Assembly: GCA_964469505.1 (NCBI GenBank)
Contig: CAYXZO010000001.1
Coordinates: forward strand, 37,402-101,401
Length of the DNA stretch: 64,000 nucleotides
Source: an uncultured Lentisphaeria bacterium
Lineage (GTDB): Bacteria; Fidelibacterota; UBA8477; JABMPR01
Direction of reading: 5' to 3'
Position 1 is the stretch's first letter, and each line of letters begins with the position of its first letter. The notes below the pieces were generated by a model, which worked only from the letters and a program-made list of their open reading frames with translations, was not told where the DNA came from and made no database searches. Positions 1,628-21,643 of this stretch are shown here, piece after piece. The position numbers and the translations under genes are program-made.

Positions 1628-5893
<4,266 letters not shown>

Positions 5894-19053: not shown

Positions 19054-19905
19054 TTAAGCTCCAGTGGTGACTTGCTTATGGCCTAGATACCAGATCAGTC
19101 CGGCTCCAATCAACATCAGGAAGCACAACACCTGGCCCATGGTGAAATAATTGAACAAAACAAAGCCCAACTGAGGGTCGGGTTGGCGGAAGAATTCAAT
19201 GAAGAATCGTACGAAACCGTAGCCAAAAACATAAGCGCCGGACAGAAAGCCGGGGAAATAATTGCGTTTCCGCAGGTTCCACAGCACGACAAACAGAAAG
19301 ATGCCTTCGAAAAATGCTTCGTAAAGCTGAGACGGATGGCGCAACAATCCATCCCCTGCCAGGGGGAAGTACATCCCGATGGGAGCCGTGGTTACCCGCC
19401 CGTATAATTCTCCGTTGATGAAATTCCCCAAGCGGCCGAAGGTGTAGCCCAGCGGGATTGCCGGGACGAACAAATCAGTTAGCTCAAAAAAGCGCATCCC
19501 ACGTTTACGAACAAAAATAATCCAGGCAACGATGACCCCCAGCACGCCGCCATGGTAAGACATACCGGAAATACCCACAAAACGCCAGTGGCCGCCTATC
19601 TTCGCGAAAGGCATAATAATGCTCAGTGGATGACGCATGAATTCGGAGAAGCCGTAAAACAAAACGTATCCTAACCGGCCGCCAATTATCACTCCCAGCA
19701 CCGCATACATCACCGCGTCGCCCACAAATTCACGTGAATAGGGCAGTTTTTCCTGGGTGATTCGCCGACTAACCAACCAATACACCAGCGTAAAGGCCAC
19801 CAGATACATGGTACCATACCAGCGTAGTGGGAAATTTCCGATGGTGAATATCACCGGGTCCATATGGCTCGGTAAATGTTGCCACCAGTACTTGAAACTG
19901 TTCAT
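19054..19905 (-). CDS. lgt: Prolipoprotein diacylglyceryl transferase
   Basis: 283 aa with the Lgt signature region (…HWRFVGISGMSYHGGVLGVIVAWIIF…) and a conserved FGRLGNFINGELYGR block. Confidence 0.9.
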   Translation of the reverse strand: MNSFKYWWQHLPSHMDPVIFTIGNFPLRWYGTMYLVAFTLVYWLVSRRITQEKLPYSREFVGDAVMYAVLGVIIGGRLGYVLFYGFSEFMRHPLSIIMPFAKIGGHWRFVGISGMSYHGGVLGVIVAWIIFVRKRGMRFFELTDLFVPAIPLGYTFGRLGNFINGELYGRVTTAPIGMYFPLAGDGLLRHPSQLYEAFFEGIFLFVVLWNLRKRNYFPGFLSGAYVFGYGFVRFFIEFFRQPDPQLGFVLFNYFTMGQVLCFLMLIGAGLIWYLGHKQVTTGA

Positions 19906-19989
19906 ATGGGATGGGAAGTTATTTCACGAAAGGGTGGAACCAAGAATTTCTAATATCTGTGTTTCCTGGAATGCGTCACAACGCTGCCG

Positions 19990-20170
19990 CTTTTTGGTAC
20001 GCCAATTATGTAGCACGGCATGCCGTGCCCCTACGAATTAATTGTTATACCACCCAACGGGCGACCGGCCGGTCGGCTCTACCATCACATTCCCCCCCCG
20101 TGCGGCCCGGCCAAACGTTCGTTGTTATCATTCATCACCTGGTTTAAATTCACCACCGTAAATGTAAATC
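19990..20170 (+). pseudogene. Decayed partial copy of the adjacent RAYT gene (HxH-to-mid region), immediately 5' of the intact gene. Contains the REP-like palindrome (imperfect, 20060-20076) and a second 16-bp perfect palindrome, gcacggcatgccgtgc, at 20013-20028.
   Basis: About 105 bp (20059-20165) aligns at roughly 85-90% identity to 20459-20562 inside the RAYT CDS. Conceptual translation reads …ARHAVPLRINCYTTQRATGRSALPSHSPPVRPGQ…, mirroring intact MPNHIHGIVWIVDNVGATGRSPLPSHYPPRGPAK but frameshifted. Confidence 0.45.
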
Positions 20171-20173
20171 GTT

Positions 20174-20827
20174 ATGGGTGAATACGATTCTCACCGTCAC
20201 CACCGGCGGTCAATTCGCCTGAAGGGATACAATTACACCCACCCGGGGGCGTACTTTGTTACCATCTGCACATATGAACATAGCTGTTTGTTTGGCCGGG
20301 TAGTTGATGGAAAAATGCGGTTGAATGGATATGGTGAAATGGTGCGGGATGAATGGTTCCGGTCGGTAAATATCCGGTCGGAAATCGAATTATATCCCGA
20401 TGAATTCGTGGTCATGCCCAACCACATTCACGGCATTGTGTGGATTGTGGACAACGTAGGGGCGACCGGCCGGTCGCCCCTACCATCACATTACCCCCCG
20501 CGCGGCCCGGCCAAACATTCGTTGTCATCATTCATCGCCGGGTTTAAATCCGCCGTCACCAAACGCATCAACCGCCATCGCCATACCCCCGGTGGGGTCG
20601 TCTGGCAACGGAATTATTACGAACATATCATTCGCACCGAATTGGCCTTGAATGCCATCCGGCAATACATTCGGGACAACCCCCTGCGCTGGCATTTAGA
20701 TCAATATAACCCCAACGCCACGGGTAACGATCCAATGCCTGACCACCTGGGGCGCTTGACATCGGACAACAGGCATCCTTACACGAAAACACCGAACCTT
20801 TATCCAGGGGAAGAAACCATGCCGTGA
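20174..20827 (+). mobile_element. REP-associated tyrosine transposase (RAYT) / IS200-like Y1 HUH transposase
   Basis: 217 aa with YFVTICTYEH…, the HUH motif NHIHGIVW and C-terminal GGVVWQRNYYEHIIR carrying the catalytic Tyr, all typical of RAYT/IS200 TnpA. It is the only plus-strand gene here, between divergent host operons. Confidence 0.85.
20461..20478. repeat. Perfect 18-bp palindrome GGCGACCGGCCGGTCGCC (REP-like hairpin) located inside the RAYT coding sequence
   Basis: Read directly from the sequence. An imperfect copy lies at 20060-20076 upstream of the gene. Confidence 0.8.
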
Positions 20828-21070
20828 CCATCGGTAGGGAACACCGTACTGAACAGCTAAAAACTTCCTACATCTCAATAGCAAATCGTAACGGCATACT
20901 ACAAGCAACCGTGCCCCATAGAACGGGATCGCACGTTACACGTATCCGTGGTAGCATTTTTCTCAAAAAAAGAGGGAATAAAAACAAAACACGCCAAACC
21001 GTGGCGCGACAAAACAACAACCTTGTTGCCTCACCTGGCGGGAGCTATAACCCTAACCCTGCCCCTCGGT

Positions 21071-21643
21071 CTATTGATCAGATTTTTGTAAACCGTTTCC
21101 TGCTATCCGGACTATTCCCAGCGCAATGATCACCCCCAAAGCCCCCAGCGCCAGAATCCATTTGGTCGAAGCGTAAAGACTGGCTAACGGTACCACACCA
21201 GGGGACACCACCGGGTAGGTGTGAAGCAAATACAAATGGCAGGCATTCTCCAACATGTCCAGGGCCCCGGCCAGCAAAGGAACCGTTAGCAACCAACGGA
21301 ACCAGGGGCGACCATTCCATTGGAAAGGCCGGGCGGTTTTGTATAACCACGTGGTTAGTAACAACGCATACAGCGCCGCGTACAGGTAATCTAACCCCAG
21401 GGCCCACACCCATTGATGGCGCACCTCAGCTGGCAATTTCGCTAAAACCGCAGCGGCTCGCTCACCGGTGAAGGCGAATTGCAAATCCAGCACTCCCACC
21501 CCCAGTTGTCGCTGCAGTTGCCAGTCACCAAGGTAGAGATAGCCCATCACGGGAATAATCAAAATCCACAGGATCAGATAGGCCCATGGTCGCTCGTCGA
21601 ACCAGCGGGCTACTACCAGACCTAAATTCATTTGCCCCGCCAC
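21071..21643 (-). CDS. Hypothetical membrane protein (190 aa, about 5 TM)
   Basis: Hydrophobic ORF overlapping the stop of the upstream enoyl-CoA hydratase gene by 16 nt. No family was recognised. Confidence 0.55.
   Translation of the reverse strand: MAGQMNLGLVVARWFDERPWAYLILWILIIPVMGYLYLGDWQLQRQLGVGVLDLQFAFTGERAAAVLAKLPAEVRHQWVWALGLDYLYAALYALLLTTWLYKTARPFQWNGRPWFRWLLTVPLLAGALDMLENACHLYLLHTYPVVSPGVVPLASLYASTKWILALGALGVIIALGIVRIAGNGLQKSDQ

Follow-up and report, generated by a model that had tools for sequence, protein, structure and literature searches.

The locus described here raises the question of why a transposase gene should carry a perfect palindrome within its own reading frame. An earlier note on this DNA had placed an 18-bp perfect palindrome inside a RAYT ORF, between the HUH motif and the tyrosine, and had considered three explanations: a cognate hairpin substrate captured in frame, a recombination or regulatory hairpin in the mRNA, and a site that inactivates or modulates the enzyme. 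We found that the palindrome is indeed there and that its true extent is 28 nt. The 18-mer GGCGACCGGCCGGTCGCC (20461-20478) is the core of GTAGGGGCGACCGGCCGGTCGCCCCTAC (20456-20483), the longest perfect palindrome in the window (the whole 64-kb stretch of DNA that was analysed). We consider it very probable that this palindrome is a 'double-foot' GTAG REP, located in frame in the loop after the HUH strand in a subclass 2.4-type TnpA-REP. Insertion of REPs in frame between HuH and Y is a hallmark of subclass 2.4 (Quentin, Siguier, Chandler & Fichant 2018, BMC Genomics 19:475, PMC6006769). The in-gene REP is an already published trait of this subclass, real but ordinary. The features of the locus are collected in Table 1.

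Table 1. Features at and around the RAYT gene, in positions of the window
Feature	Position	Strand	Remark
Second REP type, GTAG-CACGGCATGCCGTG-CCCCTAC	20010..20034	.	16-nt perfect palindrome at 20013-20028
Degenerate upstream REP copy, 23/28 positions (our own reading)	20055..20082	.	~90 nt upstream of start codon
Relic of RAYT central region (aa 97-135 equivalent, one frameshift)	20059..20175	+	abuts start codon
Y1/HUH tyrosine transposase gene, TnpA-REP (RAYT) type, subclass 2.4-like	20174..20827	+	intact 217-aa ORF
Central cassette, aa ~28-123 (HUH, REP and αC start)	20254..20542	+	alignment A2 versus strain variant L082
HUH motif codons H84-I85-H86 (in PNHIHG)	20423..20431	+	align to H59/H61 of 4ER8
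Variable loop, aa 92-116, from HUH β-strand to helix αC, contains REP peptide	20447..20521	+	AF2 model, alignment A1
Internal 'double-foot' REP, GTAG-GGGCGACCGG/CCGGTCGCCC-CTAC	20456..20483	.	frame 0, encodes V95-L103 (VGATGRSPL)
WQRNYYEHIIR, conserved W144, Q145, E150, H151, R154	20603..20634	+	align to GTAG-contact region of 4ER8
Catalytic Tyr motif YIRDNP (Y165, N169)	20666..20683	+	aligns to Y115...N119-P120 of 4ER8

The palindrome and its copies

The 28-mer has the anatomy of a REP, with a GTAG foot at the base, a G+C-rich stem (GGGCGACCGG/CCGGTCGCCC) and CTAC at the 3' end. Its predicted fold, as RNA or single-stranded DNA, is a stable hairpin with a 12-bp stem and a 4-nt loop, so that the RNA fold proposed in the earlier note as a check does return a stable mRNA hairpin. 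The GTA of the palindrome is codon V95 of the 217-aa ORF, and reading the ORF confirmed the encoded peptide that had been given, VGATGRSPL. The palindrome lies 3' of the HUH motif (H84-I-H86) and 5' of both WQRNY (W144, 20603) and YIRDNP (Y165). No T-run is present 3' of the hairpin and no terminator-like site was found there, which rules out an intrinsic terminator within the gene. An Rfam search of positions 19500-21500 returned no match at E ≤ 1.

These properties bear on a rival reading, in which the in-gene REP is a selected cis-acting element and not a tolerated passenger. It could act as an autoregulatory site in the gene or mRNA, as an mRNA hairpin that throttles translation, or as a recombination landmark for cassette exchange. 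We regard such a role as unlikely. The predicted stability of the RNA hairpin speaks for it, whereas the lack of a terminator tail and of an Rfam match speaks against it.

Other copies of the palindrome, for which the earlier note had suggested a search, are dispersed in metagenomes. At least 120 metagenome stretches contain the identical 28-mer, and its flanks there are unrelated. Among 68 copies lying away from contig ends, 6 are in RAYT loops and 5 have such a loop within 600 nt. A stricter count, made separately, covered 67 copies, of which 42 appear to be intergenic. Some copies lie in other genes, within long open frames, and in Thermogemmata REPs were found inside hsdM and hsdS. Within the window, a search for the 18-mer with up to three mismatches gave 2 matches (versus 0.04 expected from shuffles), and the REP is represented there by one perfect and two degenerate copies, all at the RAYT locus. 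This scarcity counts against our preferred explanation. As with GTAG REPs inside genes (Di Nocera et al. 2013, PMC3733652) and Rickettsia palindromic elements, an in-frame palindromic repeat is tolerated. Unlike in those insertions, the host gene here encodes the presumed mobilising enzyme, and the same loop is occupied across the whole subfamily.

The enzyme and its linker

The Pfam model Y1_Tnp (PF01797) matched the protein at 29.7 bits (cutoff 23), with only the C-terminal half aligned in one stretch. The NCBIfam model NF047646 REP_Tyr_transpos, likewise aligned over the C-terminal half only, gave 57.8 bits, under its trusted cutoff of 80. This low score weighs against the preferred explanation; the model evidently covers other TnpA-REP subclasses better than that of the present protein. 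At least 7986 homologues of the 217-aa protein were detected, spread over many phyla. Residues H84, H86, Y165, I166, N169 and P170 are invariant in alignment A1.

A single-sequence phmmer search against PDB found no match, and a profile search reached 4ER8, the E. coli TnpA-REP structure that reportedly goes back to Messing et al. 2012 and Ton-Hoang et al. 2012. Foldseek also returned 4er8_A as the best match, followed by ISDra2, IS608 and IS200 TnpA (probability 1.00 for all). Hence, E. coli TnpA-REP (YafM/RayT) is the best PDB match by both profile and fold, and equivalents of its HUH motif, W94, Q95, E100, H101, R104, Y115 and N119 are all present. In the profile alignment, W144, Q145, E150, H151 and R154 correspond to W94, Q95, E100, H101 and R104 of 4ER8, residues with a role in GTAG recognition by E. 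coli TnpA-REP (PMC6006769). The substrate of the E. coli enzyme is a GTAG-footed REP too. However, E. coli TnpA-REP belongs to subclass 2.2 (DHLH, WE, YIHYNP) and, unlike the present gene, has no in-gene REP; E. coli REPs have a single foot and are imperfect and bulged, in contrast to the perfect, symmetric palindrome seen here.

The protein shares with IS200/IS605 TnpA (IS608, ISDra2) the Y1 HUH fold and the recognition logic for single-stranded DNA hairpins. However, IS200/IS605 enzymes have Y-x3-Q and hairpins outside the gene, while here we find Y-x3-NP and a hairpin inside the gene. The genes called next to it are lgt and one hypothetical, with no tnpB, and neither LE/RE ends nor a multi-copy element were seen in the 64-kb window, in which the RAYT gene is single-copy. 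An IS200/IS605 element is ruled out by Y-x3-NP, by the score against the NCBIfam IS200 model NF033573 (17.1 bits versus a cutoff of 55), by the missing tnpB and by the single copy.

The evidence goes against the suggestion that the palindrome inactivates the enzyme. A disruptive insertion that inactivates the transposase and puts the gene on its way to becoming a pseudogene, or else a chance palindrome, strikes us as very improbable. Inactivation would agree with the degenerate gene fragment that adjoins the gene and with the limited Pfam alignment, which is continuous over the C-terminal half alone. However, the gene retains an intact ORF with all of its catalytic and GTAG-contact residues conserved, which rules out a pseudogene; the enzyme is probably still active. 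Moreover, the same layout is present in most fetched homologues from many phyla.

The enzyme probably belongs to TnpA-REP subclass 2.4 (RAYT group 4) or to something very close to it. RAYT group 4 of Bertels et al. 2017 is said to be the same as subclass 2.4. Enzymes of class 2 (TnpA-REP) carry Y-x3-NP and those of class 1 Y-x3-Q; traits of subclass 2.4 include a β3:αC variable insertion and an 8-aa insertion ending αB (PMC6006769). Like subclass 2.4 as published (PMC6006769), the present system combines NH[IFV]H (here NHIH), WQ and the Y-x3-NP catalytic motif with a variable β3-αC insertion, and its REPs, with 5' GTAG and 3' CTAC, both flank the gene and lie in frame between HuH and Y. The present REP conforms to the double-foot consensus of the subclass, 5' GT[AG]G ... 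C[TC]AC 3', and the taxonomic scatter (Chloroflexi, Cyanobacteria, Chlorobi, Bacteroidota, others) is also alike. Unlike subclass 2.4, the protein has YIRDNP, with D at the first N of the YIxNNP consensus (Table 1 of PMC6006769), a deviation that counts against the preferred explanation, and it is 217 aa long versus a median of 194 aa.

The AF2 model of the protein (pLDDT 74.9) comprises a strand at aa 84-91, a coil at 92-116 and a helix at 117-136, with pLDDT < 50 at aa 96-105, inside the coil. In alignment A1, both the length and the sequence of this region, aa 92-116, are hypervariable. Thus modelled, the REP-encoded peptide V95-L103 would sit in a poorly ordered loop. The loop is peripheral in the published subclass 2.4 model (PMC6006769) and a low-confidence coil in ours.

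The linker was said in the earlier note to measure about 60 aa here versus 25-35 aa in canonical RAYT/IS200 proteins. This contrast stands when the distance is taken from HUH to the WQ motif (58 aa to the conserved W versus 33 aa in the 4ER8 alignment), but not when it is taken to the catalytic Tyr (79 aa versus 54 aa in 4ER8). The catalytic Tyr is Y165 (YIxxNP), and the Tyr residues of WQRNYY are not catalytic. Subclass 2.4 has a published median HuH-to-Y distance of 88 aa, compared with 58-67 aa for most subclasses (PMC6006769). The segment had also been called absent from canonical RAYT/IS200 proteins. It does add length relative to these, and the proposed alignment with RAYTs shows the extra length against 4ER8, but within its own subfamily the segment is normal.

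Recurrence of the in-gene REP among homologues

We scored the strict double-foot REP as GTAGGGGC-N12-GCCCCTAC and found it in 42 of 74 HUH-WQ spans of homologues from many phyla; 57 of the 74 had a perfect stem of 9 bp or longer. The controls gave 0/1480 for codon-shuffled spans and 0/74 for N-terminal coding segments. A chance palindrome is ruled out by the shuffled spans together with the ~2e–4 perfect 14-pair palindromes expected per 64 kb (our own arithmetic). REP density is ~50-fold higher in HUH-WQ spans than elsewhere in the same loci (2.6 versus 0.05 per kb). Most homologue REPs are perfect despite 40-50% protein divergence, and many homologue genes have a matching REP close by on the upstream or downstream side, whose inner stem is the same or differs in one pair. 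The in-gene REP is a subfamily-wide trait and not a single capture in the present gene. The idea of a cognate hairpin captured in frame is supported, as a trait of the family: the REP anatomy, the dispersed 28-mer, the matching flanking REPs near homologues and the low-confidence loop speak for it, and its recurrence in 42/74 homologues shows that it was not a one-off event.

The inner stems vary among homologues yet remain complementary, with 98% of cells paired, double changes in 9 of 14 pairs and this complementarity reached in 0/500 shuffles, although the test is partly circular, as the sequences had been pre-selected as palindromes. REPs are read in frame 0 28 times, in frame 1 15 times and in the TAG-containing frame 0 times. 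One REP is read as VGARHAVPL in some genes and as GRGTACRAPT in others; as these peptides are unrelated, conservation is at the nucleotide level. A reading in which the conserved feature is the peptide VGAxGRxPL and the palindrome a by-product of its codons could appeal to the recurrence of VGA...PL in many homologues. We give it next to no credence, and the two-frame reading of the same DNA rules it out. The compensated inner-stem changes, the location of the identical 28-mer mostly outside RAYT genes and the placement of the peptide in a low-confidence loop also speak against it.

The same survey weighs on both sides of a selected cis-acting role. The ~50-fold enrichment in the loop and the mostly perfect REPs favour it, and both exceed what a purely passive passenger would predict, a point against the preferred explanation. 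However, short-linker relatives (L047, L068 and L073) have no hairpin, and the position, copy number and frame of the REP differ among family members. The preferred explanation, with a loop that tolerates the insertion, is favoured by the low-confidence coil of the model, by the short-linker relatives without a REP and by a Thermogemmata homologue that has a second in-frame REP at a different site.

Genes of this enzyme family are usually flanked by their own REPs, an arrangement known as a REPtron. By analogy with E. coli TnpA-REP, family enzymes would bind single-stranded REP hairpins via the GTAG foot, cut and rejoin them. Under the preferred explanation, the REP copy may have arrived or been renewed through the REP processing of the enzyme itself, or through REP-to-REP recombination in cis. 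Since 28 nt is not a multiple of three, an in-frame copy needs a 1- or 2-nt adjustment or replacement of a REP by another of the same length. The REP would then persist because the loop tolerates any peptide, with selection leaving only the two stop-free frames. It counts against the preferred explanation that binding and cutting of the present hairpin by the present protein is a prediction.

Upstream elements and strain variation

The earlier note had overlooked a second copy of the palindrome upstream of the gene and the ~90 nt of coding sequence that come with it (20059-20149). The degenerate REP at 20055-20082 has retained the right CTAC foot and lost the left GTAG foot. The relic is a direct repeat of 20460-20549 with 90% identity (blastn, 91 nt at 90.1%) and appears as two tblastn segments (E 5e–5 each). 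The second REP type equals the widespread GTAGGGGCACGGCATGCCGTGCCCCTAC REP minus 3 nt, which is found at full length in L007, L011, L030, L040, L071 and L072. Thus, the flanking REPs of the gene are the upstream degenerate copy and this second type; on the downstream side, the 64-kb window shows no clear REP. At most loci, internal and flanking copies share only the ~28-38-nt palindrome. Duplications of 83-109 nt were seen in three loci only (the window locus, L055 and L066), which rules out a long upstream duplication as a general feature.

A strain variant of the gene, L082, is 100% identical outside a 290-nt cassette, within which both the REP and the αC start are different. Its cassette contains GTAGGGGCGACGCATGCGTCGCCCCTAC and has SLGAIVGSFKS where the present gene has SLSSFIAGFKS. 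No donor of the cassette was found among ~200 fetched loci, in which the best matches were only ~76-79% identical.

Across the family, the REP inner-stem type tracks the residues before FK of αC (similarity 0.60 for same-type versus 0.56 for different-type genes, permutation P-value ≤ 0.0005). The pairings are AGFKS with G[AC][AC]CGG, RGFKS with GTATxG, RSFKS with ACGGCA, and GAFKTVS with G[GA]TTCG. The cassette variant, the upstream relic and this tracking are three observations beyond PMC6006769, in which neither the relic nor the strain cassette replacement is reported.

All of these can be cited in favour of a cis-acting element: L082 differs in nothing but the cassette with its other REP and αC start, a relic of the cassette stands upstream of the gene, stem type goes with αC residues, and L055 and L066 likewise have part of the gene duplicated around REPs. 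However, the link between REP and αC is explicable by physical linkage or shared ancestry, and ordinary homologous recombination also yields cassette-like patches. One may go further and propose a "specificity cassette" that can be swapped, in which the in-gene REP is no passive passenger but supplies the nucleic-acid half, a view that we hold to be improbable. REP-guided recombination in the gene would then change the specificity of enzyme and hairpin together; alternatively, the enzyme might detect the REP that its own gene or mRNA carries. The hairpin may have a regulatory role or, in view of the cassette swap, one in recombination. We found no later literature on the function of intragenic REPs.

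Overall, the in-frame palindrome in this transposase gene is the described signature of a RAYT subfamily, and annotators should take it for neither an assembly artefact nor a frameshift or pseudogene. Where 124 sequences of subclass 2.4 were tabulated in 2018 (PMC6006769), our survey widens the description to at least 7986 detectable members in many phyla, and adds quantitative support in the ~50-fold loop enrichment, the use of two stop-free frames only and the compensated stems. If the side observations hold, namely the strain cassette replacement and the REP type tracking αC residues, they would offer a way into the joint change of specificity of RAYT enzymes and their REPs.

The palindrome and the transposase that contains it

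The earlier note placed an 18-bp perfect palindrome in frame inside the gene for the REP-associated tyrosine transposase (RAYT, or TnpA-REP). This is borne out, and the palindrome is larger than stated: the 18-mer is the core of a perfect palindrome of 28 nt (see the table of coordinates), and no longer perfect palindrome occurs in the 64-kb window. By our own arithmetic, a perfect 28-nt palindrome is expected by chance ∼2e–4 times per window, and shuffles gave 0.04 matches to the 18-mer even at a tolerance of 3 mismatches. Codon V95 of the ORF is the GTA of the palindrome, and the peptide encoded is VGATGRSPL, as the note had read it. Folded as RNA or as single-stranded DNA, the 28-nt palindrome is predicted to form a 12-bp stem with a 4-nt loop.

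The window protein scores above the cutoff of Pfam Y1_Tnp, in a single-stretch alignment confined to the C-terminal half, and below that of NCBIfam REP_Tyr_transpos (57.8 bits versus 80); the NCBIfam IS200 model gives only 17 bits. Among PDB proteins, a profile built from 24 homologues hits one, E. coli TnpA-REP (4ER8). In the profile alignment, 4ER8 H59/H61 pair with window H84/H86, and W94, Q95, E100, H101, R104, Y115 and N119 correspond to W144, Q145, E150, H151, R154, Y165 and N169. The AlphaFold model (pLDDT 74.9) has 4er8_A as its top fold match, with ISDra2 and IS608 TnpA next. Alignment and fold match together identify the catalytic Tyr as Y165 in YIRDNP; the palindrome does precede it, as claimed, but the tyrosines of WQRNYY are not catalytic. 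Catalytic and GTAG-recognition residues are intact in the alignment to 4ER8, and the idea that the palindrome inactivates the enzyme is contradicted.

In the window protein, 58 aa separate HUH from the conserved W, versus 33 aa in E. coli, and 79 aa separate it from the catalytic Tyr, versus 54 aa. The extra length suspected from the sequence is therefore real, and it falls wholly between the HUH strand (84–91) and the next helix (117–136), which are separated by coil in the model. pLDDT drops below 50 at residues 96–105, exactly the REP-encoded peptide.

Coordinates of the features in the window and in homologous loci (L-numbers)
Feature	Locus	Position	Strand	Details
Y1/HUH transposase ORF	window	20174–20827	+	217 aa
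18-mer	window	20461–20478		GGCGACCGGCCGGTCGCC
Perfect 28-nt palindrome	window	20456–20483		GTAGGGGCGACCGGCCGGTCGCCCCTAC
Second REP type	window	20010–20034		GTAG-CACGGCATGCCGTG-CCCCTAC, 3 nt short; precedes the relic
Degenerate REP	window	20055–20082		heads the relic
Relic of the central part of the gene itself	window	20059–20175		immediately upstream of the start codon; aa 97–135, one frameshift; 90% identical to window 20460–20549
Short element past the gene	window	20834–20849		GTAGGGAACACCGTAC, seven nt past the stop codon; GTAG...GTAC-like feet, almost stemless
Patch differing between strains	window / L082	20254–20542 / 3081–3354		290 nt
Direct duplication	L055	2855–2937 / 3266–3350		coding sequence around the internal REP
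Direct duplication	L066	3200–3308 / 3619–3725		coding sequence around the internal REP
Thermogemmata fonticola homologue	L203	10001–10648		69% identity; two in-frame REPs, one in the post-HUH loop
Further double-foot REPs	L203	8303–9310		inside T. fonticola hsdM and hsdS
Second, more distant Y1 transposase gene	L006	4237–4509		longer loop
Second, more distant Y1 transposase gene	L079	230–532		longer loop

REPs in homologous genes and beyond

The homologue family is very large (7986 proteins with E ≤ 1e–3 among 8000 scored candidates) and includes members from Chloroflexi, Planctomycetes, Bacteroidota, Chlorobi, Armatimonadota, Acidobacteria, Cyanobacteria, Nitrospirae and Proteobacteria. After MPNHIHGIVWIV, the protein alignment is hypervariable in both length and sequence, with peptides such as VGATGRSPL, VGAHGRAPL, VRATRRVAPT and VGAQRRCAPT, at times in tandem arrays. 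The DNA behind these loop peptides is always a palindrome, GTAGGGGC-N12(13)-GCCCCTAC. A strict double-foot REP (5′ GTAG, 3′ CTAC) is present in 42 of the 74 HUH-WQ spans of homologues (2.6 per kb), and a perfect stem of ≥9 bp in 57/74; strict double-foot REPs number 0/1480 in codon-shuffled spans and 0/74 in N-terminal coding controls, and the rest of the same loci holds 0.05 per kb. Of the stem pairs, the outer eight (GTAGGGGC with GCCCCTAC) are near-invariant, and the inner six vary by gene yet stay complementary. Across 25 different internal REPs, pairing holds in 98% of cells, a figure that is partly circular since the sequences were pre-chosen as palindromes, the unbiased figures being the span-versus-control counts; 9 of 14 pairs have changed on both sides, which no shuffle matched. 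Internal REPs are read in frame 0 (28 cases) or frame 1 (15 cases) and never in the frame that reads TAG, and one and the same REP gives VGARHAVPL in some genes and GRGTACRAPT in others. The two-frame reading and the paired inner-stem changes show that DNA, not peptide, is conserved.

Tandem half-REP-like peptide units occupy the same loop in four homologous proteins (P0118, P0054, P0083 and P0107; columns ∼130–210 of protein alignment A1), and a Chloracidobacterium protein carries the array (VGATDATAGATDAT)n. These arrays suggest that the hairpin undergoes slippage, or that partial insertions have repeatedly occurred there.

Many loci have, 30–130 nt ahead of the start codon or just beyond the stop, a REP whose inner stem equals that of the internal REP or differs from it by one pair (for example L010, L045, L055, L071, L053, L062 and L049); gene and matching flanking REPs form a REPtron arrangement. 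The short element downstream of the window gene may perhaps be the scar of a collapsed REP. At least 120 metagenome stretches contain the exact window 28-mer. Classification covered the first 80 loci, where 68 copies lie away from contig ends: 6 inside RAYT loops, 5 no more than 600 nt from one, and 57 elsewhere. In a separate, stricter tally 42 of 67 copies look intergenic. Dispersed copies have unrelated flanks, and the mobile unit is therefore the 28-nt palindrome itself.

Overall, the most likely course is that the enzyme would process REP hairpins in single-stranded form, in the manner of E. coli TnpA-REP, that copies would be deposited or renewed in and around its own gene by the enzyme in cis or by REP-to-REP recombination, and that only those in the permissive loop and in either stop-free frame would survive. 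This proposal builds on the REP anatomy, the dispersed repeat, the use of the same loop family-wide with matching flanking copies, and the poor order of the loop in the model. A unit of 28 nt does not divide into whole codons, and a copy can stay in frame only if 1 or 2 nt are adjusted as well or if it replaces an older REP of the same length. The existence of hairpin-free relatives (L047, L068, L073) and a second in-frame REP in the T. fonticola homologue, seven residues ahead of the catalytic Tyr, agree with insertions that recur at tolerant sites. The T. fonticola gene lies within a type I restriction-modification operon, hsdM-hsdS-RAYT-hsdR.

Strain variation and a possible role for the in-gene REP

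Passive insertion does not fully explain the enrichment and perfection of the REPs, which are ∼50-fold enriched in the post-HUH loop and still perfect across 40–50% protein divergence, nor does it fully account for the strain patch, the upstream relic or the tracking of αC described here. All of these would also suit an in-gene REP that acts as a recombination landmark, a specificity cassette or an autoregulatory element, a reading we consider improbable. L082 comes from a sister metagenome and represents a strain variant with the same gene order as the window, to which it is 100% identical over 995 nt save for the central patch; the patch carries another REP (GTAGGGGCGACGCATGCGTCGCCCCTAC, inner stem GACGCATGCGTC) and another αC start. 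The patch looks like a cassette replacement; the fetched loci yielded no close donor. The relic, with the second REP type ahead of it, would likewise suit a functional role, as would partial duplications of 83–109 nt in L055 and L066. The latter adjoin a flanking REP, as in the window, but are absent from most other loci, where the palindrome alone is common to the copies.

Across L002–L081, the inner-stem type goes hand in hand with the residues directly ahead of FK in αC: AGFKS goes with G[AC][AC]CGG, RGFKS with GTATxG, RSFKS with ACGGCA or GCAGCA, RLFKS with ACGTTG, GAFKTVS with G[GA]TTCG, xQFKS with the 29-nt types GACCCG, GACGCG and GACCTG, and IVRGFKIGVTKW with GAAAAA. Genes of the same REP type are also more alike elsewhere in the protein (0.60 versus 0.56, permutation P-value ≤ 0.0005, no phylogeny correction). 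Linkage and shared ancestry could account for all the points that would suit a functional role. As to regulation, the in-gene hairpin was rejected as an intrinsic terminator after a terminator check and matched no Rfam family.

Relation to a published subfamily

TnpA-REP subclass 2.4, as defined by Quentin, Siguier, Chandler and Fichant (2018; PMC6006769), corresponds to group 4 of the RAYTs in Bertels et al. (2017). Key motifs of the subclass are NH[IFV]H, WQ and YIxNNP; it has a variable insertion between β3 and αC and "double foot" REPs (5′ GT[AG]G, 3′ C[TC]AC). HuH and Y are a median of 88 aa apart, versus 58–67 aa in most other subclasses. [quoted passage not shown] Bertels et al. describe group 4 as common in Cyanobacteria, Chlorobia and Caldilineae and its flanking repeats as modest in number, and GTAG REPs inside other genes are also described (Di Nocera et al. 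2013, PMC3733652). We found no later literature on a function for intragenic copies. The published features compared all match the window gene except for its Y motif, YIRDNP.

The proposal that a hairpin was captured in frame is supported by the REP anatomy, the dispersal and the matching flanking copies, but not as a singular event. The earlier note had set against it a normal subfamily segment without extra length; the segment is indeed normal for the subfamily, but the extra length is real. In the second Y1 gene of L006 and L079, the loop holds a hairpin-encoded peptide of a different kind, VGADLCVCPD...GAHAGAPL, with stems such as GGGGCAGACC...GGTCTGCCCC. The in-frame REP is a subfamily-wide and already published trait, not a one-off capture, and, given these distinct loop hairpins, the in-gene hairpin trait may extend to another Y1 clade.
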